Assembly: GCA_965197905.1 (NCBI GenBank)
Contig: CBDAOB010000001.1
Coordinates: 1 to 64,000 of the forward strand
DNA from: Candidatus Latescibacterota bacterium
GTDB lineage: Bacteria; Latescibacterota; UBA2968; UBA8231
Direction: 5' to 3'
Length of the DNA stretch: 64,000 nt
The stretch's first letter is position 1; each line of letters opens with the position of its first letter. The translations under genes and the position numbers were made by a program. The notes beneath the pieces were generated by a model. It ran no database searches and was not told where the DNA came from. It worked only from the letters and a program-made list of their open reading frames with translations. Of this stretch, positions 1 to 26,533 are shown piece by piece.

Positions 1-106
1 GAGGCTTCGTTGGGCTAGTCCCGTCCTTGGGTGCAGCTTCCGCGACTACACATCTACGCCCCGCCTGACGACGATACCTAGAGCTGAGGTTGGGGCACCA
101 ATTTAC

Positions 107-3100
107 TCAAGGTTTCGGATGGGCGGTCGATTTCTGTAGATGGACGCAATGTCCAATCTTCTTGGGGCTCCCTGTCGAGTGCCGCACGGGTATTCGACAG
201 GGATTTTTTTGGGGGGCGATTACTCGCTGGGCCGGCCCGGCGGCCCCGGGCGGGATCGCCAGCGGAATCGTCGTCGACGGATTGAACGGATTCGGGTAGT
301 TGGGAAAGAGAGCGAAGCTGCGCGGCAGCACCTTTGCCCTGCCCAGCTCGGCGACGCTCCAGGCACGGCCGGCCCCCTTGCTGATGAACGCTTCGTAGAG
401 CTCCAGCTCCACATTGCGGGGCGCTCCCTTTATTTCAAACAGCAGGTCCACCCCCATCTCTTCCTCCACCTCCACCCCACGCTGGCGACCGCGTAGATGC
501 TCGGCGAATACGAACAGATCGCCCATTTCGTGGTCCAATTCCAGGGCCGTCTGCGGTCCGCCCAGATAGGCTACCGAATCCACCCTTCCACGGTAGCGCA
601 GGATCGGAGGATCAGCGCGCACGCCCAAGCCGTATCCCAACAGCTGGGGCACCCCCTTCAAGCGCAGTTGAACGAGCACGTGCTTGCCGGAAAACGCCTC
701 CGCCGTCACCTCCATGTGGGAACCTTCCGCCACTTCCACTTTCTGGGCAAAGAGCAGCTTCCGAGCCGCCGATTCGCCGAAGCTCTGTTTCAAGAGGGAG
801 AGATCCGATTTCCCCACACGGCCGTCGCGATCCAGATCGAGATTCGGGTCGCTGCTGCCGAAACCGCTGGCGAAGATGAAGAAATCCGCGAAGGAGACAT
901 TGCCGTCGCCGTTGAAGTCGCGGGAAGCGAGGGAAGGTGTGGTCGCCTGTCTGGGTCGCAGCCGTACCGGTTCACTCCACGGGCCGGTGAAACGACCGTC
1001 GGTAGCGCGCACCCGCCACCAGTAGAACCGGCTGGAGACCAGGGTGCGATTCACCCTCCAACGGGTAAGCCCGAACCCTTCGGTAATGTTGCCGCCGCGA
1101 TCGACGATGCTGCGAAATCTGGAGGTAGTGGAGAGCTGCACGGTATAGGTCAGCTCCTCCCCCATATCCACCGCCTCGGCGTTCTGGATGACCAGGATCG
1201 GCCGCCCCGCGGTCGCGCCCTGCTCCAACCCCAGAATCGCCGGTGCCTTTGGTACATGGGACGGGTCGGGCAACCCGGCGGCGATCTCGCTCGCCCCGCT
1301 CTGGTTGGGAATCGGCTGCTGATCCACGGCGGCGACCTGGTAGCGGTAGAGCTGTCCATTGGTCAGACCCAGATCCCGATAGCGGGCTTCTTGAACCTGG
1401 GTGGCGATGGGCACGAATCCGCTGTCGTTTTCGCGATACACCGTGTAACCGCTCAGATCCGGCTCGTCGTTCGGAGTCCATTCCAGCAGATTCTCGCCGC
1501 TGCCCGGAAAGACGACCAGACCTGCGGGTATGGCGGGGGCGATCAGGTCGCGGCCCATCTCGGTGGTGAAGCTCAAGACATCGCTCACCGTCGGGCCGTT
1601 GTCGGCGCGGTCGGTGGAGCCCACCCGGTAGAAGTAGTCGGTACCCGGCTTCAGCTTGGTGAGCATGACCACATGCTCGAGCAGGTCGCGGGGACTGCCG
1701 ACCACCGCGCCCAGATACGGTGTGCTGTCGAAGTCGACGTAGGAATCAGCCAGCTCGTCCGTGGTCCAGCGGATGGTAGCGGTGCGATCGGTGATGCTCA
1801 CGACCTCGGGCCCGTCGACGAAACGCGGTTCCTCCAGATCGGGCTCACCTTCGGTCCGCGCTCTTAGCAGAAACGGATCGGGATCCTCGTTTTGGCTGGC
1901 ATCGTTGGTGAAGATGCGCAGCAGGTACTCGGTATCCACCTGGAGATTGGTGAGTATCACCTGCTGGTCTGCTTGCCGCGAGCGCACCTGGCGGACGAGT
2001 TGGTCTCCATCAGGGGTTTCGTACTCGACGCGGGCGGCGGCGGCCTCGTCGGTGCGCCACTCCACCACCAGCTCGTCATCCGTTCGCGCAGCTACTTCGG
2101 GCTCCGACACAAAACCGGGTGGTGTCAGGTCCAGTTCCACCGCGGTGGAGACGATCGCCACCGGGCTGATAGCGGCTCCGTTGTCCGAGGGATCGGTGGA
2201 CTGGACGTTGTAGAAGTACTGACGACCGGGCTCGAGATCGGTCACGGTGATGTTATGATCGCGTACATCCTGAGCCGAACCGGCGATCTCTCCCAGCGCT
2301 TCGATGGTGCCGAAATGCACGAAGCTGTCGGAGAGCTCGTCGGTATTCCAGGCTATGCTGAGACTGGTAGAGGTCTTTTCGAGGACCTCGGGTCCTCCGA
2401 CAATGAGCGGAAACTGGGTGTCTGCCTGATTGTCCGTGACGAAGAAACCTCCACCACCGGGGGGCTGCAGGATCTTCGCCGAGGCGTCGACGACCACCTT
2501 TCTTGGACCATTGATAGAGCCCCATTCCAGCAGATTGCCCGCTTCGTCCTGGGAGCGGATCCTGATCCGGTATGCGGTCCGTTTTCTCAGATTGGTGAGG
2601 GTGAGGCCGTGTTTGAAGCGCAGGTCGTTGTCCTCCACGAATCCACCCTTGCCGCCACCGATCCAGTCCACTCTTGAGGTGGCCTGCTCGTCGGTTCCCC
2701 ACTCTATCACTGCCGTCTGGTTGGTCCAGGTCACGATGGGATTCTGGGTGAATCTCGGCACCATTTGATCCTGACGGCCGCGGGTCCTGAAGCTGTGGTT
2801 TCTACTGTGGAGCTCGGTTCCAGCGGGATCAGTACTGACCTCGTTTCCAACCTGGTCGCGGCTGGTGACGACGATGTGGTAAGTGGTCCCCTGCAACAAT
2901 TCAGTGAGTGTGATGCTGTGGTTTCTCCTCAACGCCCCACGCTCGATCCGCCCCTCGTTGCTCACACTCTGCATAATGCCCGCACTCTCCACCGCTTTGC
3001 TGGAGGCGATGTCGCCGCGCCAGGCGACGCTGGAGGTGGCAGGCTCGCTCGTTGTCCAGGTCACGGTGGCCTGGTTCGTCCTCACACCCTGGAACGCCGG

Positions 3101-6100
3101 GCCGGAGGTGATTCTTGGTGGCAAAACATCCGGGGCCGCGCGGGTCTTGAAGCTGGCGCTGGCCGTGGTCGTAGCGTTGCCGGCCGCATCCCCCAGCACC
3201 GTGGAATACTCGTACTGCTGATCGGCGAGCAGACCTGTGAGCACCAGGCGATGGCGGTCACGGAACTCCGGTTCCACCTCCTCCCCGGTTTCGCCGTTGC
3301 CGCTGTAGCTCAGGGTCAGACTCGCAGGCTCGACGGTGGACACCTCGAACACCGCCCCATCCTCCGAGGTTGAGACGACGATCGGTCCCGAGTTCACGTG
3401 GGGAGGGCGCTCGTCGCGGGCATCGAGGGTCTCGACGGAGATATCGCCGGAAAAGCGCTGATTCCCATCGCCGTCGGTCACCCCGACTCGCAGATGATAG
3501 CTCGTGCCGGGGTCCAGTCGTCCCACCCGCAGCTCGTGGGCGATCTGTTGTCCCGCATACGAGAGACGTCCCAGCTCATAGGAGGTGGAGGTTCCCACGT
3601 CCAGGGTGGACAGGGCCGGCTCGTTGGTGGTGAATCCTACCACGAGCGTCTTCTGGGTGCGCCCACGGATCACCGGAACGCGACTGAAGCGAGGGGGCAG
3701 AACATCCGCTGCGGCGGGTGTCCGGAAGGACAGGTTGCGCAGCCACTGGCTCTGGTTTCCCCCCCGGTCAGTACAGAAGGTCTGGAACGTGAACTCCGCA
3801 TTGGCCGGCAGGTTGGTGAGCACCAGTGCGTGGTTCTTTACGTGTTTGGGATCGGTAACTACCTGTGCGAACCCATCGGGGCCGGAGACCGAAACCCTGC
3901 TGTCGGAGGGTTCGTTGGAGCGCCACTCGATGCGCACCCGGCCCCGTTTGATGTCGGAGACGGTGGGCGGACCGACAAATTTCGGGGGAACCGTGTCGGC
4001 TTCGTCATCGGTCACGAAGGTGCCCGATACGTCGAGGGAAACCAGGCCCTGACGGGCGCGCGAACGCGCCGTGAAGCTGTACTCCGTGCCGGCAAGGAGG
4101 TTGGTGAGTACGACGCGATGTCGGGTCTGGGAGCGGCCGCGGGTTTCGGTGCGCAGGTCGGCCGGGGAAGCTGTTGGAAAATAGTCCACCTGGGCGTCGG
4201 CCTCGATGTCGGTGCGCCAGAAGATGGTGGCCCGGTTGTTCGCCACCTTCTCCGCCACCGGTCCCACGGTGATCTCCGGCGGCAAGGAAGCCGCCTGCCC
4301 CAGCGTCGTGAAATCGAGCACCCTTGATTGGCCCGTATTGCCGCTGGCGTCCGCAACACTCACTTGGTAGAAATACCCGGTGTCTGCGGTCAGGTTCGTC
4401 ACCACCACGCTGTGATCCTTGCGGCGGTTCAGTACCTGTTCCTGGCTGGCGTCGTTCAAATCCCGGCTGGTAGCGACGCCGAGACGGGCGTCTCCCGGTT
4501 CGTCGAGCGTCCAGACGCGCGCGCTGGTCTCGCTGATATCGGTGGCAAACGGCGGATCGACGAAGGTGGGAGCGGTCTCGTCCCTCGCTGCGCTGGTAAC
4601 AAACGAAAGGGCTCGTTCGGTGGAGCGGTTGCCGACGGCATCTCGGGCTAGGAGACTCACGAAATAGGTGGTTGCTGCCTCGAGGCCGGTGAGGTCCACG
4701 CTGTGGGTTCGCTTGCGAGCGCTGACCGTGCGATGCTCAGCGCCGGCAAGATCGGCGGAGCGGCTATAACGCAGCAAGAACTCCACCGGCTCATTGTAAG
4801 TCACTTCGATCGAGACTCCGGCGTCAGAGATGCCCTGGACGTCTGGACCGGTCTCCACCAGCGGCGGCTCCGCGTCGGTTTGCAAGGTCGCAAAGGCGAA
4901 CGGCGCTGCGGGAGCTGGATTGCCCTGGGCGTCTTCGAGCTCCACGGTGCCGTCGTACCGCGCGCCGGGTAGAAGCTGGGTCAGCTGCACCCGGTGCTCG
5001 CGCGCCAGATCGGTGCGAATCACACCGGCGGCGGATCCTGCCGCCACCTTGGCCACGTTCGTCCTGGCAAAACTCAAAACGCCTCGAGTGAGCTCATCTG
5101 AGCTCCAGGAGATCGTGGCACCCGCCTCGTTTACCCCTTCGGCGAACGGCAGGCGTACAAATTGAGGCGGTGTCGTATCGCTGGTTTCCCAGGTCGTGAG
5201 CTCACCTCGAGCCGGTACGGTTTCGTTGTTGAAGGCATCCCGCACCTGCACTTCATAGAAGTACTGGGTGCCGCTCTCCAGATTGGTGAGGGAAAGACTG
5301 TGTTCGGCGGTCAGCTGACCGCTTTCCTTCAAGGTCGGTGTGGAAAGATCTTGCTCGGTCGACAGCAATGCCTGCACCCGGGTTGGTTCGTCGGTGGTGA
5401 GCACCAGGACCCCGCTGCTTGCGGTCAGACCCTGGATCGCTGGACCGGTGAGGATCGTCGCGGGGCGCATGTCGGGAGCCCCTCGCGTCTCGAAGGTGAT
5501 CAAATCCGAGGCGGCGGCGTTACCCGTCTCGTCGGTGATAAACACCTGATAGAAGTAGGTCGACGCGGGCTCCAATCCGGTCAGCTCCAGCTGGTGCACG
5601 GTTCGCGCCGCCTGGCTCTCGACCGCGCGCCCGTCGCTGAGCCCCTCATCGGTGTCGAAGCGAACCTGGACGGTGGTCAGCTCATCCGTTTCGAAATCGA
5701 CGCGGGCAGAGAGATCGGTGATGCTGCGGGTGGCGGGTCGGGCGACAAAACCTGGCTGGGTGTCGTCTTTGATCGCCGCGGTTGTGAACTGTCCGCTGCG
5801 GACCGTCGGCGGATTCCCTGCCGCGTCGGTGGAGGAAGCATCGAACCCGTAGGTCGCCCCGGGAATCAGACCACTGAGGCGGACGATGTGGTCTGCCACC
5901 AGCTCATCGAAAACCACCTCTTCGACGGCCTGCAGCAGATCGAACGGTTTGGCCGAGGCGATGGTCTGGTAGCGAACGACGCTGTTGCTCGGCTCATCCG
6001 TCGTCCAGCGCACCACGGCGCTTTCGTCGGTGATCCCGTCCACGAACGGGTCTCCCAGAAACAGAGGCGAGGTTTCGTCCGGTGCCGCCAGGGTCAGGGT

Positions 6101-8270
6101 ATTGGCGAGAAAAGGCGGAGATTCGTTGCCAAACAGATCCGTGGCGAACAGCTCGTAGGTGTACCGCGTCGCCGCCTCCAGTCCGCTGACGGTCACCATC
6201 TGCGCTATCGCCGAGGTTGGCGACGAGCTTTCCTGGGCGGTGCCATTCTCCGCTACGACCCGTACCCGGGCAAATGCCGCCTCGTCGGTTTGCCAGTTGA
6301 AGGTTGTGGAGGTCACGTCCGGCACCACGAGAACCTCAGATATGACGGGCGGCAGCCGATCCTCTTCCGTGGTAAACATGAAACTAGAGTTCGACGATGC
6401 GCCGTCCGGGTCCCTGGCGGTCACCTGCCAGGTGTAAGTTGATCCCGGCGCCAGGTTCATTGGACTGTAGGTCGTGCCGCTGCCGGACTGCACCTGTGTC
6501 GCCGAACCCGTTTCGCCGAACGCCAGATCGTAGGTCAGAGCATCCCCGTCCGGATCGGAGCTTTCCCACGAGAGCTGCGGCGTCAGCGTCACCTCGGTGG
6601 CACCGTTGCCGGGAAATCCGGCCATCGGCACGCTGGGCGGATCGTTGACCGGCGTCCAGATCAAGGTCACTTCCTGGGTCGCCTTGGAGCCGTTGTCCGG
6701 ATCAACGAGTTCGACGGTAACCGTCGTCTCTCCGTTGGCGTTGGTATGCGGGGTGAAATCGACGCCCTCGGACCCTCCCGCTGCCGCAGCGACAAGAGTC
6801 GGGTCGAATCCCACGGCTCCCCAAACCAGGGAGCCGGTGTCCGTGTCAACATCGCTGGCATTTCCGGGACCAGCCACGTGAATGCTGGCTTCCTCCTCCG
6901 CCGTGAAGCTGGCCGCTAGCACCGGCTCGATCTTCGGTGGGTCGTTTACCGCCGTCCAGGTGAGGGTCACATCCTGGGAGGCAGTAAGACCGTGGACGTC
7001 GGTACGAGTGACCGTGACCACATCGTTTCCAGAGGTGTTGGCCACCGGGGTGAAGACGATCATGTCTCCCGTCACCGAAGTCTCGGCGATGAGACTGCCG
7101 TCAACGCCGCTGACGCTCCAGGTGCCGGCACCCGCGTCTATACCCGTCAGATCCAGCTCGATCTGCTGGTCTTCGAAGGTGGAAGCGTCATCGATAGCGC
7201 TGAGGGTCGGAGGCGCATTTACCGTGACCGCTGTCTGGACAACGCTCGATCCGCCAGGACCACGAACTGTCAGTATGGCCGTGTGCGTGCCGGGGGTTGA
7301 ATAGGTCGCCTGCACCGTCGTGCCGAAGCTGGTGGTGTTTGCGTAGGTGTTGTCGGAGATCTTGCCGGCGTCGTCCTTGGTTTCGAGGAAGGCGGAGCTC
7401 GAGTAGCCAGTGGCTGACACGGTGTAGGTAACCGAGAGCGGAGGATTGCCCGAGCTTGGCGATACGCTCAATGTAGCCGCCGGAGCCGCCGGGGCGTGAA
7501 TCGTCATGCCTCCCGTGGCGCTGCCTACGTAGTTGACGTCGCTGATCGTGGCGGTTACGCCAAAAACACCAGGGCCTGCCGGAGGTCCCGTAAGAGGTAT
7601 TCCTTCCTGATCGTAGGAGAAGGAAACCGGCAGGTTGGCCGGGACCGTCGCCGCCGCCGCCGATTTGGCGGTACCGTCGAAGGTAGCTTCCAGGGTCGGA
7701 AAGGTTACGGTGGCCTGAGCCTTGCCAATGGAGAACGGCGAGCTCGTGGCCGAAGTGAGATTGATCGGCGTCGTGGCCTCCAGGGTGCGATTGGAACCGG
7801 CGCCGCTGACGGTGATACCGCTGAAGGTGGCCGCCCCCAGGATAGCCGTCGCAACCGTGGTCGACAGGGTGCCCGAGCTGATCGCCAGGGTTGATGGTGC
7901 TCTGGAAGTCTGCATCGAGCGTTCCGCTGGCATCCACCGCGTTGACCACCACCGTAAAGGGTTGCAGGTGGATGATGTCCGAGGGCAGCGTAGCGAACGA
8001 CAGCTTGACGGCGGTGATGTCGGTGTCGAACAGGAGCGCTGCGAGGGTCTTGTAGTTGGAGCTGGACGGTCGCGAGCTGAACAGGCCGCCGACCTGGGTC
8101 ACGGGCCGGAGCTTGTAGTTGGTGCCGGAGTAACGCACCGAGGGCGTGCCGCTGAAGGTGCTGGTGGTTACCCGGTAATTGGTGCTGGTGTTCTTCTGGG
8201 CCGATGCGGGTCCAGCCAGGCAAACCATGCCTGACAGGCAACAGACTCTGAAGAGAGCGCGTGATCTCAC
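107..8270 (-). CDS. Giant (~2,700 aa) secreted multidomain surface protein: signal peptide, MBG-like, PKD-like, 2 cadherin/Big-like, ~18 FN3-like repeats, EF-hand/dockerin-like pair, truncated T9SS-A/FlgD-type C-terminal domain; +1 frameshift at ~7891
   Basis: GTG at 8270 gives the signal peptide VRSRALFRVCCLSGMVCLAGPASA-Q. Removing one extra A in 'acc atc a acc ctg' joins ORF 7188-8375 to ORF 107-7933. Repeated 'D..PP....P.V..IT..SA.I.W.TDE..H...LT.L...T.Y.Y....D..GN' units, DFNGDGNVSFADFFIFASGFG, and NYPNPFNPSTTI. The true 3' end is uncertain (~220). Confidence 0.85.
170..210 (+). terminator. Intrinsic terminator
   Basis: Stem ccctgtcgagtgcc / ggtattcgacaggg (14 bp, two G-U pairs) followed by attttttt. 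Confidence 0.7.
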
Positions 8271-8283
8271 GGTTTCACCAGAT

Positions 8284-11200
8284 CTAGTTGAGGTCCGCCC
8301 GCTTGATTGGAATCGCCTTCGTGAGTGGCGACGCCTGAGATCCTGAAGAGTACTCAACCATATCCTGGCCCTCAACTCTGTCCACCAGATACTCGACCAG
8401 CTCCCGAGTCTTTCTCAGCTCGTCGCGAAGTTTCTCTACCTCGACCATCTCCTGGTCGAGTCGATCTATTTCATTGCTCTGGCGTCGAAGGGTTCTGGCT
8501 TGCTCGCGAATCTTGAGCTCGTGGGTTCGGATGGTCTCATCCTGCTGCTGCACAACGCTGTTTAGACCCTGGATCGCGGCCAGCGCTATCCCGGGCGGAT
8601 CGATCGTAGAAATCCTCGTGTCACTCGCCCCGACTCCGAAAATGGCATAGAAATCCTGCGCCATTGGCCCGATGTGCTCGATGCTGGGGTCCTGGGACTT
8701 GAGACTCCACTGCTTGATGGGCAACTGCATGACCTTGGCCAACATTTGCTCACCGTCCACGGTCCTTATATTGCGTTTGAAAGTGCTGTCCGAGATGACG
8801 CTAAAGGCCGTAGCGCCGGCCAGCAACTCTGCGCCGACCGTTGCGGCGGCATTGGTCAAAAACCGCACCCCGCCTGCGGCCTGGACACTAAACTGGTTAA
8901 CCGCCGTGGAGGCGAAGATCCCTGAGCCGTCGGCCCACACGAAGGCGTCGTTGTGATTGGCCTGTGCTTGGAACCCCGCCGCAAAGCTACGTATCCCAGC
9001 TGCCACGTTTTGGTAGCCGCCGGGAACCGTGGAGCCAATACCGCTGGCGATGTTGCTCCACCCACCGCTGATAACGGCGAAACTGTCGTATGAGGCATTG
9101 CTGCCGCCGCCGCCGACCGTGGATTGATTGCCGCTGGCGGTGTTGGCGTTACCACCGCCGACCGTGGCGTAGATATTGCTAGCCGTGTTTGCCCCACCGC
9201 CACCGACAGTAGCGTGGGTGTTGGTGCTGGCAGTGTTGTTCTGCCCCCCGCCCACCGTGGCGTAGGTGTTGCTGGCGATGTTCAGAAGACCACCGCCGAC
9301 CGTGGCGTATTGGCCGCTTGCGGTGTTTTGCGCGCCGCCGCCAACGGTGGTGTTGTCGTTGCTGGCGATATTGATGCTGCCGCCACCAATGATGGAGCGA
9401 AGGCCGCTGGCGGCGTTTCTAACACCCCCACCAATGGTCGCCTCTATGCCACTTGCAGTATTACTGCTGCCGCCACTGATGACGGCGAGCACACCGGATG
9501 CGATGTTGTTCTCGCCACCGCCGACGGTGGAAGAGGAGCCAATCGCGTCGTTGCTGTGACCGCCACTTATTACGGCGTTTAAGGCACTTGCTACATTGAG
9601 CTGTCCGCCTCCAACTGACGAATTGTATCCGCTCGAATTATTGGCAATGCCACCCGAAACTGTAGCATTCGTATTGTTAGCTATGTTGCTGTCACCACCT
9701 CCGACGGTGCTTCTCAAACCGCTAACAGTATTTCCCGCGCCTCCTGCGATCGTGGAGTTGGCTCCGCTGGCGGTGTTGGTACCACCTCCGCCCACGCTTG
9801 CGGTTTGACCGGTTGATTTGTTGTTCGTCCCACCTGCGACGGTTGCTCCAGCACCGGTCCCTGTATTGTTCTTGCCACCTCCGATGGTAACGTGAGTCCC
9901 GGTTCCGGTCGTGTTGCTGCTACCGCCGGCGACAACGGATAGGAGACCGCCCGCAATGTTGTTCTCGCCGCCACCGACAGTAGCGGAAGCAGCACTCGCG
10001 TCGTTGCTGCGGCCGCCGCTGATCACGGAGTAGACCCCGCTGGCGGTGTTGCCTTCGGCTGCGGTTGCGTCTCCACCTCCTCCGACAGTGGAGTAGACTC
10101 CGCTGGCGGTGTTGAATCTCCCTCCCCCCACCGTGACGTAATCGCCGGTACTGGCGGTGTTGCTCTGACCCCCACCAACAGTGGCGCTCGTGCTGCCCGC
10201 GATGTTGTTGGTGCCGCCGCCAATGGTGGCGCCGGTGCCGTTGGTGTTGTTGCCGTCACCACCGCCAATGGTGGTGCCGGCGCCGCTAGCGGTGTTGCCC
10301 CAGCCGCCTGCGATGGTGGTTCTTAGAGCGCTGGCGTTGTTAGATTCGCCGCCGCCAACCGTGGAGGTCTGGCCGCTGGCTTTGTTTTGGAGACCGCCTG
10401 CTACCGTGGCATGAATGTTGGTGCTGACGGTGTTTCTTTCGCCGCCACCGATGGTAGCGTAGTCACTGCTTGCAGTATTGCTCGATCCACCGCTGATAAC
10501 CGCCAGAAGTCCGCTTGATACGTTGTTAAATCCGCCACCAACTGTTGCAGTGTTGCCCGTGGCATCGTTGCTGCGGCCACCGCTTATCACCGAATTCACT
10601 CCACTGGCCGTGTGGCCTTCGCTGGCAGAGCCGCCGCCACCACCACCAATGGTGGCGTACCAGTTGCTCGCCGTATTGAACACCCCTCCACCCACGGTCG
10701 CGTATTGCTGCGTCGCGGTGTTGTTCTGTCCGCCACCGATAGTCGTCCTGTGGTTGGTTGCGTCGTTGCTGCTCCCCCCACCTATGGAGGACCAGCTACC
10801 ACCAGCGGAGTTGTTGATACCGCCGCTGACAGTCGCGAACTGGCCGCCTGCACTGTTTCCTTGCCCGCCTCCGACTGTAGCGTGGCTGCTGTTAGTGATA
10901 GAGTTGTCCTCGCCACCGCCAACGGCACCGTAAATTGCGCTGATTGTATTGCTGCTGCCGCCGCTTATAACGGACAGTAGTCCGCTGGCGATGTTGTTGA
11001 ATCCACCCGAGACCGCACTCGTATTTCCTGAGGCACTGTTGCTGTGGCCGCCGCTGATGACGGAAGCAAACCCGCTGGCCCCGTTGACGGCACCGCCCCC
11101 GACGGCTGCATTCTGACCACTGGCAACGTTTTCGTCGCCGCCGGCCACGGTGGAGGCGATGCCGATGTTGCCGTCATCCCACTCCGTTCCCGATACCTTT

Positions 11201-11865
11201 CCGGCCCGGAACGCCGCCTTCGCCGGCACCCACATCAACCGCGTCCCGGCTCCCGAGACGGGGGTCGATCCCGTGTTGCCATCCACCAGCAAAACGCCAC
11301 TTACCTTGAACCCTGAGCTGATCAGGGTTGCGATGGTAACGCTGTTGCGCTTCAAATCCAGATCGGCAGCGGCCAGGTTGTCGATGGCCGCAATGCCATC
11401 CGCCGTGGCCGCCCTAAGAGCATATGGCGCTGAGAGCAGCGGCTGTCGCGGCGACAAGGTCTCCAATCCACTTCCATCGTTGACCTGGATCTCCAGAAAG
11501 AGGGAATCCGAGAACACCGAAGTGGAGATCGCCTCTGTACTGCCCAGAATCACACTGAACAGTCCGCTCTGGACGCTCACCACGTGGTCCTCGCTGGCAC
11601 CAGAAGGCCACTTCTTGGTGCCACCGCTGGAGGCGTCGTACAGCGCGAACTTCATGGTCACTGCGCCATTGGTGATCAGTTGACCGTTCTCGTCAGTGAG
11701 CTGGCCGTCATAGCTGATCCTGCCGGGGACCTCCTGAGCAAGGGCATGACCTGTCATCATCCCAGCCGCCAGAAACACACAAACACACACCAGCGCTCGT
11801 TTTCTGGGACACAGACGAGGCTGGTATCGCGCAAAGCTGATGGCTAGTCGCCGCATAATCGTCAC
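8284..11865 (-). CDS. Secreted tail-fibre-like protein with Gly-rich 14-aa repeats and C-terminal peptidase S74-like chaperone (paralog 1)
   Basis: Signal peptide ending ALA-QEVP, N-domain ISYDGQL..FALYD..GLFSVILG..SAPYAL, GGGxxNxASGxxATV repeats, SDSTFKRNI..HIGPMAQD..GIALAAIQGL, then a coiled coil. Start may be the ATG at 11856. Confidence 0.85.
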   Translation of the reverse strand: MTIMRRLAISFARYQPRLCPRKRALVCVCVFLAAGMMTGHALAQEVPGRISYDGQLTDENGQLITNGAVTMKFALYDASSGGTKKWPSGASEDHVVSVQSGLFSVILGSTEAISTSVFSDSLFLEIQVNDGSGLETLSPRQPLLSAPYALRAATADGIAAIDNLAAADLDLKRNSVTIATLISSGFKVSGVLLVDGNTGSTPVSGAGTRLMWVPAKAAFRAGKVSGTEWDDGNIGIASTVAGGDENVASGQNAAVGGGAVNGASGFASVISGGHSNSASGNTSAVSGGFNNIASGLLSVISGGSSNTISAIYGAVGGGEDNSITNSSHATVGGGQGNSAGGQFATVSGGINNSAGGSWSSIGGGSSNDATNHRTTIGGGQNNTATQQYATVGGGVFNTASNWYATIGGGGGGSASEGHTASGVNSVISGGRSNDATGNTATVGGGFNNVSSGLLAVISGGSSNTASSDYATIGGGERNTVSTNIHATVAGGLQNKASGQTSTVGGGESNNASALRTTIAGGWGNTASGAGTTIGGGDGNNTNGTGATIGGGTNNIAGSTSATVGGGQSNTASTGDYVTVGGGRFNTASGVYSTVGGGGDATAAEGNTASGVYSVISGGRSNDASAASATVGGGENNIAGGLLSVVAGGSSNTTGTGTHVTIGGGKNNTGTGAGATVAGGTNNKSTGQTASVGGGGTNTASGANSTIAGGAGNTVSGLRSTVGGGDSNIANNTNATVSGGIANNSSGYNSSVGGGQLNVASALNAVISGGHSNDAIGSSSTVGGGENNIASGVLAVISGGSSNTASGIEATIGGGVRNAASGLRSIIGGGSINIASNDNTTVGGGAQNTASGQYATVGGGLLNIASNTYATVGGGQNNTASTNTHATVGGGGANTASNIYATVGGGNANTASGNQSTVGGGGSNASYDSFAVISGGWSNIASGIGSTVPGGYQNVAAGIRSFAAGFQAQANHNDAFVWADGSGIFASTAVNQFSVQAAGGVRFLTNAAATVGAELLAGATAFSVISDSTFKRNIRTVDGEQMLAKVMQLPIKQWSLKSQDPSIEHIGPMAQDFYAIFGVGASDTRISTIDPPGIALAAIQGLNSVVQQQDETIRTHELKIREQARTLRRQSNEIDRLDQEMVEVEKLRDELRKTRELVEYLVDRVEGQDMVEYSSGSQASPLTKAIPIKRADLN

Positions 11866-11918
11866 ACCCTTTTTACGAGGGACCGATAAAATGCACTAAT
11901 GGTTCATGAATTGCTCAA

Positions 11919-11953
11919 CTCACGTACGGAATAATTCTTTGTTAAACAAGCAG
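11919..11953 (-). promoter_or_regulatory. Conserved promoter-like motif upstream of fibre paralog 1
   Basis: Minus strand CTGCTTGTTT-N17-TACGTGAG; the same motif with the same spacing occurs at 15591-15625. Confidence 0.45.
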
Positions 11954-11959
11954 TTGCAG

Positions 11960-14900
11960 TTATTCACTGGCTGCCAGATCGTCCGATGATGTATCGATCA
12001 GCAAAGACTCCAGCTTATTCATACGAGCTTCGAGTTCGCCGTTTCGCTTCCTCAATTGGTCGATCTCACGTTTTTGTTCCCGCAGTTTTTCTGTTTGATC
12101 GCGGAGCCAGGCGTCCTGGTCATCATTGCGAACCGCTTCTGACTCGAGTTGGCGTACTGTCACCATTCGGTGCTCGCGGACCGTTTCGTTGAGCCCCTGA
12201 ATCGCCGCTAGTGCGATTCCCGGCGGGTCGATTGTTGAGATAGTAGTATCACTCTCGCCAATGTGGAAGGTGGCGTACAAGTCCTGTGCCATAGGCCCGA
12301 TGTGTTCGATGGATGGGTCCTGACTCTTGAAACTCCAGCGCTTGACTGGCATCTCCATGAGCTTCGCCAGTACTTCCTTGCCATCGAGAGTGCGGATGTT
12401 CCGTTTGAGGGTGCTGTCGGAAACGCCGCCCCAGGCGTTGGCGCCACTTGCCATTGTGACGCCGGCGGTGAGGGCCGTATTAGAGTAGAGCCGGTAACCC
12501 CCGTTGGCCCTGACAGTGAACTCGTCGGTGTTAATCGAGAACAGACCCGCGTTTGTCGTAAAATCTGCCCAGACGAACGCGCCATCGTGTTGGGCCACAG
12601 CGTGCCTGCCTGCCGCGAAGCTCATCGTTCCTGAAGCAACGTTGTTCCCGCCACCCGGAACCATAGCCTGGGAGCCGCTGGCGAAATTACTGAACCCGCC
12701 ACTGACGACCGCGTAGAGAGCGCTGGCCTCATTGAGCCGTCCTCCGGACGCCATACTGTAGTTCCCACTGGCGATGTTGCTACTGCCGCCGCCGACTACA
12801 GCCTGTAAGCCGCTCGCGATGTTGTTCTCGCCGCCACCGACGAAGGAAGATAAACCTGTGGCATCATTACTGCGTCCTCCGCTGATAACGGCGTAGACGG
12901 TACCTGCCGCGTTGTTCTGACCGCCACCAATCGCAGCATAGAGGTCGGTCGCGTTGTTCAGGTTGCCGCCGGCAACCGTGGCGTTGGTATTGGTCGCCGT
13001 GTTATTGGTGCCACCGCCAATGGTGGCTCGTAAACCGCTGGCATTGTTGGTCGCACCTCCGGCAACGGTGGCTTGTTGGCCACTGGCGGTGCTTGAAGTA
13101 CCCCCGCCTACGGTGGCATTGACGCCGCTGGCGGTATTACTCCCACCCCCTGCGACCGTGCCCTGATTACCGCTGGCGGTATTTGCGGAACCGCCCCCCA
13201 CTGTGGCTTGCAAGCCGAGGGCGGTATTGTTCTGGCCGGCGGCGACAGTGGTGTGTGTATTGGTGGTGGCCGTGTTTCCTTCACCTCCACCCACAGTCGC
13301 GTAGTTGCCGCCTGCTGTGTTGCTGGAACCGCCGGCGATGACTGCGAGGATACCGGAGGCGATGTTATTTTCCCCACCACCAACGACCGCCGAGTTACCC
13401 GTGGCGTCGCTGCTGTGGCCGCCGCTGACCACGGAGTAGACGCCGGCGGCGATGTTCCCTGCGGGAGCAGTGGCACCGCCCCCTCCACCGACAGTGGCAA
13501 AGTCACCACTGGCCGTGTTCTGCTGACCACCGCCGATCGTAGCCTGTAGACCGCTGGCGGTGTTGTTAATGCCGCCGACGACGGCAGAGTAGGTATTGCT
13601 GGCCGTGTTAAGCCTTCCTCCAGCTATTGCGGACTCCTGCCCACTAGCGGTATTGGTATTGTCCCCGCCGACGAAAGAGTACTGGGCACCGCTTGCCGTG
13701 TTGCTGGTGCCACCCGTTACGGCACCGCCAGGAGCGCTCGCCGTGTTGTTTAACCCCCCGGCGATAACGGAACTGTTGCCTGTAGCATCGTTTCCCTGAC
13801 CACCCGCCACCGTCGCGTTTAGCTGGGTTGCGGTGTTCCTTTGCCCGCCGCCTATGGTGGCGTGGGTGCCTGTGTTGACGCTGTTTCGTTCACCGCCGCC
13901 GACTGTGGCGTAGTCAGTGGTGGCGGTGTTGCTGGAACCGCCGCTTATCACGGACAGGCTGCCGCTGGCGATGTTGTTTTCGCCGCCACCGGCGACCGAA
14001 GAGCCACCTATTGCGTCGTTGCTGCGACCTCCGCTAATAACGGAGTAGACCCCGCTGGCCGTGTTGCCCTTGCCGACAGCGCCTCCTCCTCCTCCAATGG
14101 TGGAGTTGAAAGCAGAGGCAGTGTTGTTCTGACCCCCGCCGACTGTGGAGTTTTGGCCGCTGGCGGTGTTTAGCTCGCCACCGCTGACCGTGGCGCGGAA
14201 GCTGCTGGCGGTGTTGTTCTGACCACCACCCACCGTGGAGTTTTGGCCGCTGGCGGTGTTGGTAAAACCCCCGCCGACCGAAGCGCTTTGGCCGCTAGAC
14301 GTGTTGGTTTGCCCACCGCTGAGGGTGGCATTGCTGCCGCTCGCGGTGTTGTTTGCGCCTCCCCCGATGGTGGCGTTGAAAGCCGAGACGGTGTTGTTCT
14401 GGCCGCCGCCGATGGTGGCGTGGGTATTGTTGGCTGTGTTGCGCTCACCGCCACCGATGGTAGCGTAATTACTGTTCGCCGTGTTACTGCTACCGCCACC
14501 TACAACGGCCAGGATTCCGGAGGCAATATTGTTCTCGCCCCCGCCTACAGCAGAAGAATTGCCAATTGCGTCGTTGCTGCGGCCGCCGCTGACCACTGAG
14601 TAAACACCGCTGGCGGTGTTGCCCTCTCCAGCGTTCGCACCTCCTCCGCCGCCGACCGTGGCGTAGTCGGCACTGGCGGTGTTACGCCTACCCCCTCCAA
14701 CGGTGGCCAAAAGCCCACTGGCGGTGCCCATGGAGCCGCCACTGACGGTTGCACGTGATCCGCTGGCGGTGTTGGTCTGGCCCCCACCGACCGTCGATTG
14801 GATGCCACTGGCTATGTTGCCCTGACCACCGCCCGCGGTTGCGTAGGTGTTGCTAGCGGTGTTGTCCAGGCCACCTGCGACGGTTGAATTCGTACCTATA

Positions 14901-15534
14901 TTGGCGTCGTCCCATGCGGTGCCCGTAACTGCCCCTGCTCTAAACGCCCCTTTCGCCGGCACCCACATCAACCGCGTTCCCGCACCCGATACGGGCGTAC
15001 TCCCAGTCGTACCTTCAACCAGCAAAACCCCATTGACCTTGAACCCTGAGCTGATCAGCGTCGCGATGGTGACGCTGTTTCTCTTCAAATCCAGATCGGC
15101 TGCGGCCAGGTTATCGATAGCCGCAATGCCGTCGGCGGTTGCCGCTCTCAATGCGTAGGGGGCCGACAAAAATGGTTGCCTGGGTGATAGCGTCTCCAAG
15201 CCACTGCCGTCGTTGACCTGGATCTCCAAAAACAAAGAATCGGCGAAGATGGCGGTCGATATCGCCTCCTTGCTGCCCAGAACCACACTGAAACTTTACG
15301 ACGCCTCGAGCGGTGGCACCAAGAAATGGCCCGCTTGGTTACGGCGCCATTGGTGATCGGCTGGCCGTTCTCGTCGGTGAGCTGGCCGTCGTAGCTGATA
15401 CGGCCAGGAACCTCCTGAGCCATCGTCTGGCCGACCATGGCGCCCGCAAACAGGAACCATATCAGCAACGCCAACCTCTTAGTGATGAACTGGGCTAATT
15501 GTAGCAGCAAAATACCTCTGATTCGCTGGCACAT
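11960..15534 (-). pseudogene. Fibre paralog 2, interrupted by a 42-bp inversion with flanking deletions at 15294-15335
   Basis: ATG at 15534 (GGAG upstream) encodes the signal peptide plus QEVPGRISYDGQL..NGAVT. The remainder resumes at FSVVLGSKE and runs to the S74-like SDSTLKRNI. The LYDASSGGTKKWP codons lie on the opposite strand. Confidence 0.8.
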
Positions 15535-15590
15535 GACCAAGTCTCCGTTTTGGACGATATGATGCAAATTTGCGTTCGGGATAGTGATCG

Positions 15591-15625
15591 CTCATGTACG
15601 GAAATAGCTATCCGCTGACAAGCAG
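15591..15625 (-). promoter_or_regulatory. Conserved promoter-like motif upstream of fibre paralog 2
   Basis: Minus strand CTGCTTGTCA-N17-TACATGAG; matches 11919-11953. Confidence 0.45.
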
Positions 15626-15635
15626 AATTGTACTC

Positions 15636-18600
15636 CTATTTGTCTACCAATGGGGCTCCTCGCGTTGCGCGAAACAATATTGATTCCAGCTCAACTAGGC
15701 GAGCCGCCAGCTGGCTGTTCTGCTCCCGCAGGGCTACTAGTTCCCGCTCCTGCTGTTGGAGCAATTCTTCGTGCTGATCGAGGCGAAGGGATTCTGATTC
15801 CAGCGACTCCAGTCGTCGGGCAGTCAGATTGCGATTTTCCTTCACGACTGCATTCAGTCCTTGAACGGCTGCCAGAGCGATCCCGGGCGGGTCGATGGTA
15901 GAGACGGTAGTATCGCTCTCGCCCACGTGAAAAACGGCGTACAGGTCCTGCGCCATGGGTCCGATGTGTTCGATACTTGGATCCTGGCTCTTGAAGCTCC
16001 AGCGCTTGACGGGCATCTTCATGAGTTTTTCCAGCACTTCCTTGCCGTCGAGGGTGCGGATGTTGCGTTTGCGCGTGCTGTCGGACACCGCCGACCAGGC
16101 GCTGGCGCCGCTGGCCATGGTAACCCCAGCGGTAGCGGCAGTGTTGGAATAGAGGATATAGCCGCCGTTGGCGCGTACGGTGAAATCGTCGGCGAGCGTA
16201 GAGGTCAGCGTGCCCCCCTGGTCGGCCCAGACGAAGGAGCCATTGTTGAGTGCGCGGGCCGATTTTCCGCCCGCGAAGCTGTAATCACCCCACGAGGTGT
16301 TGCTGAACCCACCTGAAATGACGGCATATTGTCCGCTGGTGTAGTTGTTGGTGCCACCACTGACAGTGGCACCTATCGCAGCGGCCGTATTGTTACTGCC
16401 CCCTCCAATCACCGAAGTCGTAGCGCTGATCGTATTCAGCTGTCCACCAGCAATAACCGACTGCGTCGCACCGCTGATTCGATTTCGGTTCCCACCGCCG
16501 ATGAAGCCGTCGACACTGTAAGCGAAGTTGCTCGATCCTCCACTGATGACGGCTTGGTTGCCGCTGGCAAGGTTTTTCAGACCGCCACCGATAAAGGCGT
16601 GGTTGCCGCCGGCGGTGTTGCCCGTGCCTGCACCCCCCCCTCCGCCGACAGTGGAGTTGACGCCGCTGGCAGTGTTTTGGGAACCGCCGCCCACCGTGGC
16701 ATGAATCGCGCCGGTGGTGTTTGATGAGCCGCCGCCGATAACGGATTCTTGGCCATTGGCGGTATTTAATTGTCCTCCGCCGATAAAGGCCAGTTGGTTG
16801 CCGGCGGTGTTGGTGCGACCCCCGGCAATGGTGGCTTCGACGGCGCTCGCGGTGTTGCGGAAGCCGCCGCCGATCGTGGCATGTTGATTGATGGCATTGT
16901 TACTGCTTCCACCGGCGATAACAGCCAGGATACCGCTGGCATTGTTATTAAAGCCCCCGCCGACAAACGACATGTTGCCCGTAGCGTCATTGCTGTGACC
17001 GCCGCTGATGACGGCATAGAGGGCGCTCGATGTATTGCTGAAGCCGCCACCCACCGTCGCATAATCGCTGGCGCCGGCAGTATTGCTCTGGCCGCCGGCC
17101 ACGGTAGTCCGCGTGCCGCTGGCGGTATTGCTCTGGCCGCCTCCGATCGCCGTATAGGATTGCGTGGCCATGTTGCCGGTGCCCCCACTGACAACAGCGT
17201 AGGTATTGCTCGCCGTGTTGGCGGCACCGCCTCCTATGAACGACCAGTTCCCGCTGGCGGTGTGGCTCTGACCGCCGGCAATGGTGGGCCAGGTGCCGGA
17301 GCCTGTGTTGGAGCTGCCTCCGCCAATAGTGGCGGCTTGCCCGGTCGCCTTGTTGGCTGCCCCACCGCTCACTGTTGACTCTGTGCCACTCGCCGTATTG
17401 CGAAAGCCACCGCTAATCGTGGCGGCAGAGTTATTGGCTGTATTGCTGCTGCCGCCACTGATGACCGACAAGACTCCGCTTGCGATGTTGTTCTCGCCGC
17501 CGCCGACGACGGAAGAATTGCCAATCGCATCGTTACTGTGACCGCCGCTGATCACAGCGTTGACAGCACTTGCCGTATTGTTGTCACCACCGCCGACCGA
17601 AGCATCCTGGCCACCCGCTGCATTCTGGCTGCCTCCGCCCACAGATCCATGAAGACCGTTCGCTGAGTTGGCGTTTCCGCCGCCGACCACGCCATAAGCT
17701 CCTGTAGTGGAGTTTCCGAATCCCCCACCAATCGTCGCCCAGGAGTTGCTGACGGTATTGTTTCTGCCACCACCAATGGCCCCAAAATCCCCGCTCTCAA
17801 CATTTTGGAATCCACCGGAAATCGTTCCATGGGGATTGGTCACCGTGTTGTCTTCGCCACCGCCGACAGTACTGTAATTGTTGTTCGCGGTATTGCTGGA
17901 GCCTCCACCTATAACGGACAGAAGACCGCTGGCGATGTTGTTCTCACCGCCACCGATGGCAGATGAGTTGCCCGTGGCGTCGTTGCTGTGGCCGCCACTC
18001 ACGACGGCGTGTACTCCAGTTGCGGTGTGGTTCCGACCACCACTGACTATGGAGTACAGGCCACTGGCAGTATTGGTGAAACCACCACCGACTCTGGAAT
18101 GGGACCCGCTGGCGGTATTGGTTTGTCCCCCGCCAACACTGCCGTAGGCTGCAGAAATAGTGTTCGAAGACCCACCGGCAATTGTTGCTCCCCCTGCGTT
18201 GGCGTTGTTGTTGTTCCCTCCTGCCACGGTCGCGTTTATCCCACCGCCGGTGCCTGCCAGGTTACTCTGGCCGCCACCTACAAAGGCGTACGTCCCTCCC
18301 GCTTTGTGACCCGTGCCTCCGGCGACGGTGGACCAATTACCACTTGCTGTATTTCCCTCACCACCGCCGATTGTTCCGTGGTCGCTGGTTGCGGTATTGC
18401 TACTGCCGCCACTAATAATGGACAGGAGCCCGCTGGCGATGTTGTTGAACCCACCCGAAACTGAGCTGGTATTGCCGGAGGCGCTGTTGCTGTGGCCGCC
18501 GCTGATGACCGATGCGAACCCACTGGAACCGTTAACAGCTCCACCGCCGACAGCAGCATTCTGGCCACTGGCGACGTTTTCATCGCCGCCGGCGACAGTG

Positions 18601-19298
18601 GATGCGATGCCGATATTCCCATCGTCCCACTCCGTTCCCGACACCTTCCCCGCCCTGAACGCTGCTTTCGCCGGCACCCACATAAGACGTGTTCCGGCGC
18701 CCGATACCGGTGTTGATCCCGTGTTTCCATCTACCAGCAGTACCCCGTTCACCTTGAATCCGGAGCTGATCAGCGTCGCGATGGTGACGCTGTTTCTCTT
18801 CAAATCCAGATCGGCGGCAGCCAGGTTGTCGATGGCCGCTATGCCATCCGCCGTAGCTGCCCTCAATGCATATGGAGCCGAAAGAAATGGCTGTCTAGGT
18901 GCCAGGGACTCCAACCCACTTCCGTCGTTAACCTGGATGTCCAAGAACAGAGAGTCTGCGAAAATGGCGGTGGACATCGCCTCCTTGCTGCCCAGAACCA
19001 CGCTGAAGAGACCGCTCTGGACGCTCACCACATGGTCCTCGCTGGCACCAGAAGGCCACTTCTTGGTGCCGCCGCTCGAAGCGTCGTAGAGCGCGAACTT
19101 CATGGTTACGGCGCCATTGGTAATCAGTTGGCCGTTCTCGTCGGTGAGCTGGCCGTCGTAGCTGATACGACCGGGCACCTCCTGTGCCCCGCCAATTCCG
19201 GGCAAAAAGGTCATCAAGGCGACAACTCCAAGCGCCGCCGTGCAGGTCCGCAGGATCGATGTTAGTCCCAGTCTGAAAAAATGCGCCACGCGGGTCAT
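15636..19298 (-). CDS. Fibre paralog 3 (Gly-rich 14-aa repeats, S74-like chaperone)
   Basis: AAGGAG RBS before ATG 19298; same architecture as paralogs 1 and 2; SDSTRKRNI..HIGPMAQD. Confidence 0.85.
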   Translation of the reverse strand: MTRVAHFFRLGLTSILRTCTAALGVVALMTFLPGIGGAQEVPGRISYDGQLTDENGQLITNGAVTMKFALYDASSGGTKKWPSGASEDHVVSVQSGLFSVVLGSKEAMSTAIFADSLFLDIQVNDGSGLESLAPRQPFLSAPYALRAATADGIAAIDNLAAADLDLKRNSVTIATLISSGFKVNGVLLVDGNTGSTPVSGAGTRLMWVPAKAAFRAGKVSGTEWDDGNIGIASTVAGGDENVASGQNAAVGGGAVNGSSGFASVISGGHSNSASGNTSSVSGGFNNIASGLLSIISGGSSNTATSDHGTIGGGEGNTASGNWSTVAGGTGHKAGGTYAFVGGGQSNLAGTGGGINATVAGGNNNNANAGGATIAGGSSNTISAAYGSVGGGQTNTASGSHSRVGGGFTNTASGLYSIVSGGRNHTATGVHAVVSGGHSNDATGNSSAIGGGENNIASGLLSVIGGGSSNTANNNYSTVGGGEDNTVTNPHGTISGGFQNVESGDFGAIGGGRNNTVSNSWATIGGGFGNSTTGAYGVVGGGNANSANGLHGSVGGGSQNAAGGQDASVGGGDNNTASAVNAVISGGHSNDAIGNSSVVGGGENNIASGVLSVISGGSSNTANNSAATISGGFRNTASGTESTVSGGAANKATGQAATIGGGSSNTGSGTWPTIAGGQSHTASGNWSFIGGGAANTASNTYAVVSGGTGNMATQSYTAIGGGQSNTASGTRTTVAGGQSNTAGASDYATVGGGFSNTSSALYAVISGGHSNDATGNMSFVGGGFNNNASGILAVIAGGSSNNAINQHATIGGGFRNTASAVEATIAGGRTNTAGNQLAFIGGGQLNTANGQESVIGGGSSNTTGAIHATVGGGSQNTASGVNSTVGGGGGAGTGNTAGGNHAFIGGGLKNLASGNQAVISGGSSNFAYSVDGFIGGGNRNRISGATQSVIAGGQLNTISATTSVIGGGSNNTAAAIGATVSGGTNNYTSGQYAVISGGFSNTSWGDYSFAGGKSARALNNGSFVWADQGGTLTSTLADDFTVRANGGYILYSNTAATAGVTMASGASAWSAVSDSTRKRNIRTLDGKEVLEKLMKMPVKRWSFKSQDPSIEHIGPMAQDLYAVFHVGESDTTVSTIDPPGIALAAVQGLNAVVKENRNLTARRLESLESESLRLDQHEELLQQQERELVALREQNSQLAARLVELESILFRATRGAPLVDK

Positions 19299-24234: not shown

Positions 24235-25287
24235 ATGGCTAACAAGCGCATTCTCGTAGTAGACGACGATTCTTACGTCCGCGAGGCGACCGAAGAGATC
24301 CTCACCCGCCGTGGCGTACGATGTGGATACGGCTCCCGAAGCGGCCACCGCCCTGCGCAAGCTGGATGAGGGTGAATACGATCTGATTCTTTCAGATATC
24401 CGCATGCCTGGCATGAGCGGCCTGGAACTCTTGGAGGGTGCCCGGCTCAAGGCTCCGGATGTGCTGATCATCATGATGACGGCCTTCGGCACCATCGAGG
24501 ATGCGGTAGACGCCATGAAGAAAGGCGCTTTCGACTACATCCAGAAGGGATCCGATCCGGCAGAAGTGGAGATGGTGGTGGAACGCGCACTCAAGTTTCA
24601 GACCACGCAGCGGGAAAACCGTCAATTGCGCTCCGAGCTCAAGGAGCGCTACAGCTTCGGCAATATGATCGGCAAGGCGCACAATATGTAGAGCAGGTGT
24701 TCGATTTGATCGACACGGTGTCCGACAGCCGCGCCACGGTGCTGGTAACGGGCGAAAGCGGTACCGGCAAGGAGCTGGTAGCTCGAGCGTTGCATTACAA
24801 CAGTCCGCGAAGCGCTGCGCCCTTCATTCGACTCAACTGTGCGGCGCTGCCCAAGGAGCTTATGGAGAGCGAGCTCTTCGGCCATGAGAAAGGAGCTTTT
24901 ACCGGGGCCATCAAACAGACCCGGGGTCGCTTCGAGATGGCCGACGGCGGCACCCTGCTGCTGGACGAGATCAGCGAGATCGATCCCGCCCTGCAGGCCA
25001 AGCTCCTGCGTGTGCTGCAGGAACGCGAGTTCGAACGGGTCGGCAGCGCCCAGACCATAAAGGTGGACGTCCGCATCGTCGCCACCACCAACCGCGATCT
25101 CACCAGACAGATCGATGAAGGTCGCTTCCGCGAGGATCTCTACTACCGGCTGAACGTGATCGAGATCGCCTTGCCATCTCTGCGCGAGCGGCGGGACGAC
25201 GTGCCCGCGCTGGTGCGCTCGTTCATCGAGCGCTACAACAGCGAAAACAACAAGAACATCGAAAGCATCTCCGACGAGGCCATGTGA
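24235..25287 (+). pseudogene. Sigma54-dependent response regulator (NtrC/FleR family); two frameshifts and missing C-terminus
   Basis: REC domain (ILVVDDD, DIRMP), [14 protein letters not shown] and LLLDEI. Frameshifts at ~24316 and ~24689. Ends at ISDEAM without WPGNVREL or the HTH. Confidence 0.88.
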
Positions 25288-26533
25288 TCGGACATACCAG
25301 GGTAGCTCTGGGTGGCCTGGTCCGTGAGATCTTCGGTCCAACCGACGGCGACGACCTGAAACTCCTGGACCGCATACTCGACCGTGTGGCCGCCATCTAC
25401 GCGGGACGCGAGATCGTGCTGGAAGATTGGAAGCTGCTCGCCGGCGGCTACGAGGATATGGGCGATCTGGTGCGACTGGCCGAGCGCGCCGCCGACTCCG
25501 ATCCGGCGTTAGAGGATGTCACCGCCGCGATGGAGCTCTTCTATGTCACCTTTGCGTTGGCGCAGACCCTACAGTTCGCGCTTGACGACCCCAACGAAAT
25601 CGACGCCCGCGTGCTCTACAAGAACCTCGCCGACTTCTTCGCCGAAACCATCGATGACCACTGGCATGCCTATTTGCCCTGGGTCTACAGCAGGTGCCCC
25701 TCCATGCGAGGGAAGGACGCCGACGAGCTTTATGGTCTGGCCGTCCGCCGCCATTCCTGGCTATACCGCTACCTGCGAATGGTCTTGACCCGATGCACCG
25801 ACCTCCGATTTCGCAGCGCTGTCGAAATGGACGCGCTGCTGGGTTCGATGGACGACGAACAGCTGCTAGCCGGCATCGGAGCCGGAGGCTCCACCGACAA
25901 CGAGCGGCGCTGGCGCGCCTACAATCAGCTGCGCGAGATCGCGTTCGTCCTCGGAGATGGTTTTCCGACGCCGATGGTTTTCGAGGAATTCGACCCCGAT
26001 CTGATCGACGCCGACCGCCGCGCCAATCTGGCGTTTCTCTACCCTGTCGGGCGGACCCATGTCTCCCGCGCGCTGCGCGAAGGACCCACACTCAACTCGC
26101 ATCTCGAAGCAGACGGCCACGTTTCGCGCGGTGCGAACCTGTTGATTTCGCGTCAACGCCGCAGGTGCATCGAATCTCCCCGAATTCACCCGTGAGATGT
26201 GGACTTGCGATCCGGTGATGCCCCCATTTATACTGGTCGATCGAGCCACAGTACGATGCCGGCGGTCTACCGAGTGGTTCGGTGGCGATACTCGAGGATG
26301 AATCCGGCCGCTTCGAGGGGCAGATCGTGGACTGGCACTTCATCCATCTCGAGCCCAATGTGGGCATCGGTCTCTGGGACCGCTTCAATCTGCGAGAAGA
26401 GGTCCTCGAACGAGAAGCCAGCACCCGCGATCAACGTGCTTTCGACTGGTCGAACGTCGGCACCAGTGACCGGGTCGTCCTCAGAAACCTGGTGATCTCA
26501 GGGGCGCAGTATCTGGACGCCATCCGGAGCTGA
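25284..26533 (+). pseudogene. Fragmented C-terminal part of an unknown protein
   Basis: Protein-like 290-aa ORF with no real start; continues through frame changes at ~26155 and ~26222 to ..YLDAIRS*. Confidence 0.5.

Follow-up and report, generated by a model that had tools for sequence, protein, structure and literature searches.

Two described surface systems come closest to the locus discussed here. The mosaic adhesive trimers (MATs) of Bdellovibrio are fibres in which a ~130-amino-acid (aa) beta-rich domain follows the signal peptide in all 21 members, and S74 self-cleavage has been demonstrated for one of them, Bd3182; according to the accessible text of that work, the surface element bound by the MAT N-domain still awaits identification (PMC10769870). 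The accessible portions of reviews from 2025 and 2026 name no anchor for these fibres. The second system is the Pam pilus of the Candidate Phyla Radiation (CPR), for which PamT is modelled as the tip pilin; a tail-fibre-like gene co-localised with the Pam genes is assigned no role, and how the pilus grips its host is left open in the accessible text of this 2026 preprint (PMC13278184). Here we analyse a stretch of 64,000 nucleotides (nt) from Candidatus Latescibacterota bacterium, hereafter the window, which opens contig C1 in a 5-contig genome (G000) of 6.69 Mb, and in which three S74 fibre genes are followed by a giant gene. This locus is probably a partly broken two-part display, made of MAT-like S74 fibres and a sorted partner protein; a short N-terminal segment of the partner, which we call the adapter, likely binds the trimeric fibre base, as gene context suggests.

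The three fibre genes—A (15636..19298), B (11960..15534), and C (8284..11865)—are co-directional on the minus strand and share one architecture. Fibre A is intact and encodes 1,220 aa, with a signal peptide, an N-domain (18843..19184), a neck, ~49 Gly/Asn repeats, a Peptidase_S74 chaperone (15930..16085, with SDSTRK), and a coiled-coil tail. Fibre C is also intact and encodes about 1,190 aa from GTG 11865 or ATG 11856 (S74 at 8638..8793), and fibre B (S74 at 12266..12421) has an N-domain that is broken in this assembly. Each fibre has a signal-peptide-like start, a predicted mature form that begins with Gln, and a variable, coiled-coil-like tail after S74. The Pfam Peptidase_S74 model scores 41.8-44.8 bits in the three fibres against a cut-off of 22, and S-D-x3-K is present. 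Conservation is highest at the base: the 114-aa N-domain is 91% identical between A and C and the necks are 88-99% identical between copies, with 52-56% identity in the repeats and 44-66% in the tips, which are homologous repeat arrays and not mosaic folds. The repeats, 44-49 per fibre, match UspA1_rep below its cut-off, and fibre B matches LbR_Ice_bind above cut-off. An earlier note, made from the sequence alone, had described three paralogs of this layout, and the layout holds, the proposed search for S74 included; its 14-residue repeat period, however, is rejected, since 15 is the commonest spacing (among the commonest, 15 occurs 69 times, 16 occurs 30 times, and 14 occurs 21 times), and fibre B is not intact. 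The same note had stated that the fibres lack an anchor of their own, and the Pfam and NCBIfam scans agree—no anchor family was found in the fibres, whose C-terminus is S74 plus coiled coil.

By sequence, the N-domain appears to be homologous to that of MATs. It matches the NCBIfam model Bdello_MAT_N (NF053851) with E 7e-10 and 38.9 bits, under the 60-bit cut-off, and the same model is matched by 88 of 104 N-domain family members. The MAT layout proposed in the earlier note is borne out by this match; by analogy the window fibres would work like MATs, with a family score that stays under the cut-off. Both have a signal peptide, a beta-rich N-domain directly after it, a fibre of ~1,000+ aa, and a C-terminal S74 with SDxxxK (PMC10769870; NF053851), and both form paralogous families without phage context. 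The window fibres differ in their body, a Gly/Asn 15-mer array with three homologous rather than mosaic tips, and in their host, which has SprA and PorU and for which no predation is shown; the window also has an adjacent candidate partner gene, whereas the partner is not identified in the accessible text of the MAT paper (PMC10769870). The earlier note had placed the fibres in a lineage not known to be predatory; N-domain fibres outside predators are common, and MAT-like ones are already mentioned in the accessible text of the same paper (PMC10769870).

The N-domain is modelled as a confident, MAT-N-like beta-sandwich (predicted local distance difference test, pLDDT, 83). Structure searches with this model returned generic beta-sandwich matches only (best Foldseek E 6e-3; best Z 6.4), sequence searches of the PDB gave nothing significant, and an ESM Atlas search gave unnamed clusters only. 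The N-domain matches 94,239 cluster representatives (50% identity clusters) at E<=0.001, and a consistent match to a Pfam or PHROG family was found in 0 of 104 members. Some natural proteins carry three N-domains in tandem (P0007, P0008, P0009, P0012) and may thus imitate the trimeric base with a single chain. In other families of the phylum, a short (316-388 aa) N-domain protein without S74 is found in a syntenic housekeeping context (L031, L032, L033, L041-L043, L046-L049, L051, L053, L306); at L041 and L043 a 160-180-aa adapter-dockerin gene lies convergent beside it.

The candidate partner is encoded by the giant gene, which starts at GTG 8270, 13 nt past the fibre C stop, and has 126 + 2,554 codons when read through its break. 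Its 5' part (7893..8270, minus strand; 126 codons) encodes a signal peptide, the adapter, and the beginning of an Ig-like domain. The stalk (230..7891, minus strand) carries MBG, PKD, Big_9/cadherin, and FN3-type repeats, a dockerin-like repeat (782-919), and the first third of a C-terminal domain (CTD) of the type that type IX secretion systems (T9SS) use. The earlier note had described a 2,700-aa protein with a sorting-type end 13 nt downstream of the fibres; the spacing and the FN3 repeats are as it said, but the gene is split by a +1 frameshift and of the CTD only the first third remains. The adapter itself (8010..8198, minus strand), the proposed fibre-docking site, consists of three S/T-x-x-Y-x-hydrophobic repeats in ~55 aa after the signal peptide. 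A second giant (giant 2), directly after a fourth S74 gene (fibre D) on contig C5, has such a segment as well; the two copies are ~30% identical and both keep the three repeats. A pattern drawn from the two giants' adapters, which is not independent of them, finds only those two among 38,725 open reading frames (ORFs).

An outside model gives the same two places. Positions 8-78 of the NCBIfam PamT model (NF058579) align with residues 8-80 of the giant (E 2e-4, 22.1 bits), and in the whole 6.7-Mb genome at E<=1 the model hits exactly two places, each the N-terminus of a giant that lies directly behind an S74 gene; across 153 phylum genomes at E<=0.01 it hits three, all behind S74 genes. The likeness to PamT lies in the first ~80 residues of the giant and in the gene order, with fibres that bear this N-domain coming after PamT-like genes too. 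Nothing beyond the N-terminal segment is common, however: the window has no truncated-Ig pilin domain, chaperone, or pilus, and the window giant does not match the truncated-Ig tip pilin over its full length (the model has 241 positions and a cut-off of 240 bits). Pam operon pilins and membrane-anchored chaperones were not seen among the window genes, the PamA-E and PamC/D models not having been searched in the genome. The preprint, in its accessible text, gives the N-terminal segment no role and draws no link to MAT fibres (PMC13278184).

Beyond this genome, the adapter and the N-domain are found side by side in many lineages. The N-domain is present in 26 of 153 phylum genomes, and at 13 of the relatives' loci retrieved, the neighbouring gene opens with a similar segment of ~55 aa and has a sorting-type tail behind it. 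These 13 segments were the seed of an adapter profile, which had four matches outside the seed—two plainly lie after a fibre-type C-terminus at the edge of a contig, and two could not be judged. An independent set of 78 loci from many phyla was chosen by S74 alone (from the best 80 of 566 confirmed), and 8 of the 78 were set aside as cut. An adapter gene on the same strand within 273 nt was found at 30 of 51 loci with an N-domain versus 1 of 19 without (Fisher p 3.5e-5), and at 19 of 38 versus 1 of 19 when the over-sampled Pyrinomonadaceae are left out (p 9e-4); both p-values overstate the linkage, because these loci also went into iterations of the profile and related loci do not count as independent. 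Adapter proteins have 130-1,400 aa, and many are tiny, with 140-230 aa and nothing but the adapter and a sorting tail, with long examples at L055 (1,397 aa) and L090 (1,303 aa). Their tails differ by lineage: T9SS CTD, dockerin/EF-like, YLP-like, or transmembrane plus basic. Several fibres per adapter are found also at L060, L064, and L066. No natural fusion of adapter and N-domain was found among the proteins examined.

The PamT model matches 18 of 58 adapters (best 3.6e-9), and the reverse comparison was made at PamT-like loci, of which we took the best 80 of 113 metagenome loci; these contigs have no taxon names and are called CPR-like from the PamT match and gene order. An adapter-like N-terminus is present in 78 of the 80. 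An N-domain fibre occurs in 25 of the 80, or 21 of the 47 that have at least 2 kb downstream, and in 24 of these 25 it lies 0.5-4.6 kb downstream of the PamT-like gene on the same strand; no S74 match was found at the 25 loci in the contig DNA examined. Taken together, the linkage and the PamT loci show the adapter following the N-domain rather than S74 or the rod.

The rod is where the present reading departs most from the earlier note, which had cast the long FN3 protein as the fibres' partner. The downstream gene is the likely partner, but the part that travels with the fibres is its N-terminal segment of ~55 aa, which a small protein usually carries. The co-occurrence of fibre and rod that was expected in related genomes was not seen: close relatives of the rod are present in 10 of 153 phylum genomes, and inspection of 7 such loci in relatives, several of them truncated at the 5' end, showed no adapter or N-domain fibre. 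Five other long rod paralogs of this genome begin with FG-GAP or NHL domains rather than the three-repeat adapter. On these grounds we reject the FN3 rod as a conserved fibre partner; the FN3 stalk has the look of a common frame on which various heads can be set. Other giant FN3 rod paralogs, headed by FG-GAP domains and mostly split by frameshifts, lie at G000:C3:690321-716175, C3:1178718-1200280, and C4:2097837-2101244, and 5 of 8 rod loci in the genome match in two frames. In another genome, L045 (G128:C121) has an N-domain fibre and, behind it, an FN3/CTD protein of 2,323 aa; the N-terminus of this protein has a GFW motif at its end and is missed by the adapter profiles, and L045 is possibly a second giant-stalk case.

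How the display would be built can be proposed from these parts. By analogy with known S74 and MAT biology, the fibres would be exported by Sec, trimerise under the action of S74, and cleave themselves at the SD serine, leaving a repeat-rich tip. Three repeats in the adapter and a three-fold base suggest one strand per protomer, that is, a 1:3 complex; each repeat would fold as a strand on one N-domain, with one adapter per trimer. The isolated adapter, modelled from 127 sequences, is predicted to be unfolded (pLDDT 45), which speaks neither for nor against binding and is compatible with folding on binding, without being evidence for it. The T9SS-type tail of the partner would then export and attach the pair. 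SprA_N (129 bits) and PorU (661 bits), the T9SS translocon and sortase, are both above cut-off in the genome, and 62 of its ORFs carry a CTD-type motif close to their end. Like T9SS type A cargo (TIGR04183-like CTD), the giant and many adapter proteins end in such a domain; the window fibre, in contrast, has no CTD and would ride on a partner that does, and the CTD of the window giant is incomplete—cut at position 230, where that of giant 2 on contig C5 is complete. In the window the adapter may have been grafted onto a ~2,700-aa Ig/FN3 stalk that would hold any of the three fibres far from the cell; their near-identical bases (91%) would let A, B, or C share one socket. Trimeric autotransporter adhesins (YadA/UspA1-type) have a C-terminal beta-barrel anchor; the short Gly/Asn repeats of the window fibres resemble their beta-roll heads, but the window fibres lack a C-terminal beta-barrel and their polarity is reversed, with the conserved base at the N-terminus.

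A broader proposal has, in our judgement, about an even chance of being right. A single plug-and-socket module may be shared across much of the bacterial tree: a pseudo-threefold adapter of ~55 residues would clamp the trimeric MAT-type N-domain and mount phage-like fibres, tens of thousands of them, on T9SS, dockerin-like, or YLP-like tails, on an FN3 stalk, or on the Pam tip via PamT, and would supply both the MAT anchor and the Pam tip adhesin. Such a general docking module may be new—we found no description of the adapter or of its pairing with fibres in the literature, a search that mostly did not cover subscription papers, and the supplements of the MAT paper and the Pam preprint may list such neighbours.

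Several observations weigh against the docking of fibres by the adapter, in general and in the window. Genes that are linked are inherited together, and the loci cannot be counted as independent. By profile, 21 of the 51 N-domain loci have no adapter (at least three of these have a divergent one by eye), most of the short ortholog group in the phylum has no adjacent adapter (two have one on the opposite strand), and genome G015 has eight N-domain fibres, in IS-rich (insertion sequence) arrays (L020-L025), with one detected adapter gene, an arrangement that suggests a shared socket acting in trans. For the window, five adapter profiles of our own (13, 51, 88, 25, and 125 sequences, without rows from this genome) miss the segment genome-wide, the segment lacks the GG and G[QE] turns of the adapter family, and its PamT match of 22 bits is far below the 240 cut-off. 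The absence of adapters and N-domain fibres from the relatives' rod loci counts on the same side, as does fibre D, which has no remaining N-domain in the assembly. Directed comparisons are kinder: 1 of 500 shuffles reaches the adapter score, for each giant, and hhalign gives a probability of 43% and P 2.5e-4. Judged by sequence, the window segment is at best a divergent member of the adapter family.

These points bear on two other accounts of the same genes, both of which we consider unlikely. The adapter protein could be an export escort or folding cap, the fibre then being released or held otherwise; the tiny size of many adapter proteins (140-230 aa) is what would be expected of a carrier, and an adapter predicted to be unfolded fits transient as well as permanent binding. 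Adapters on long stalks (the window, L055, L090) and on PamT, however, suit permanent display better, and the pair is found across lineages with different envelopes and tails. Slightly less likely still is that the giant is an independent T9SS-type surface protein whose N-terminus merely resembles the adapter, or is a non-functional recombination remnant of a rod gene that entered a fibre-adapter operon. Rod paralogs without fibres, the failure of our five profiles, and a repeat-rich genome (138 repeat pairs of at least 900 nt) in which both loci are damaged all fit such a history; it sits poorly with two copies that are only ~30% identical and yet keep three repeats, both directly behind S74 genes, and with a curated outside model that picks only these two in the genome.

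A phage origin deserves mention because S74 is a phage tail chaperone family and viral contigs carry related S74 domains. Like phage tailspikes (PF13884), the window fibres have an S74 above cut-off with catalytic S and K; unlike them, they have a Sec signal peptide and a cellular N-domain, and no virion genes are present. The N-domain was not found in 50,697 phage records (tblastn), occurs in 2 of 80 S74 viral loci, and has no PHROG, and a PamT-like query matches no viral contig. No phage structural family matched in the 11 proteins scanned, and the remaining window genes are housekeeping; the earlier note had likewise seen no phage genes nearby. Prophage or contractile injection system tail fibres are largely refuted as an explanation and have next to no probability left; we reject a prophage origin on the signal peptides, the housekeeping context, and the absence of the N-domain from the phage records searched.

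The two-part display, if this is what the locus encodes, is damaged in the window, a feature absent from the earlier note, with lesions in fibre B, the giant frame, and the sorting domain. In fibre B a micro-inversion of ~40 nt with flanking deletions (15293..15335) breaks the N-domain; an uninverted allele is found on a contig of run X3, from a different study. Runs X1 and X2, which are one sample and possibly the source of this assembly, have contigs that cross the +1 frameshift in the giant gene (7891..7893, minus strand) with no gap. These contigs carry the frameshift, and no homopolymer or slippery run is present at the site; sequencing error is rejected as its cause. In this assembly a repeated element interrupts the sorting domain at position 230: window 1..229 is the end of a mobile element, 99% identical to C1:149872-150099 and C2:462237-462464 and near a serine-recombinase-like ORF, and the contig ends inside the element. 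At least two full copies, with the serine-recombinase-like ORF and an HTH regulator, are present (G000:C1:143312-151228; C2:455728-463594). The missing end of the sorting domain has no close match elsewhere among the top 40 matches listed. As assembled, the window locus cannot make an intact scaffold. It is very unlikely, though a little less so than a phage origin, that the locus is fully functional and its breaks come from regulation or assembly, as a programmed frameshift, phase switching, or a contig-end chimera would; the uninverted fibre B allele and the position of junction 229/230 at a contig end would fit this, and the lack of a slippery run, the frameshift in X1 and X2, the splitting of giant 2 and other paralogs, and the cutting of fibre D by mobile DNA speak against it. 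This copy is largely pseudogenised and an unusual variant, with the adapter on a giant stalk; since the stalk gene and fibre B are inactivated in the sequenced population, display at the locus is probably lost.

The second locus (G000:C5:2652614-2673451; L035 covers 2657200-2677160) holds fibre D, giant 2, and a giant 3 with an NHL head, and its strand and gene order are the same as if it continued the window locus. Fibre D has its 5' end cut by mobile DNA (IS plus a group-II-intron-like repeat), and giant 2 combines the adapter, a frameshift near 2667600, and the complete CTD.

The window copy, degraded and unusual, is a poor experimental model. One short, expressible segment is a candidate socket for both MAT fibres and the Pam pilus, and with this segment named and matching gene pairs listed from many phyla, the question can be put to a binding test of two proteins. 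Because the very large N-domain family lacks both a Pfam model and a solved structure, a docking rule, once confirmed, would give an annotation to a great many hypothetical surface proteins, and it would offer modular display of trimeric fibres.

The rest of the window yielded minor observations. An Rfam scan of window 1-25,000 gave no match, and three regions (25284-26195, 41887-43305, 47801-48688) hold ORFs of 190-300 aa without a Pfam or PHROG match. Between 26534 and 32782 lie ATP-grasp-like, GHMP kinase, enoyl-ACP reductase, and DUF2064/CofC-like genes together with split genes for a thiamine pyrophosphate (TPP) enzyme; this TPP gene pair may encode an enzyme like phosphonopyruvate or sulfopyruvate decarboxylase.

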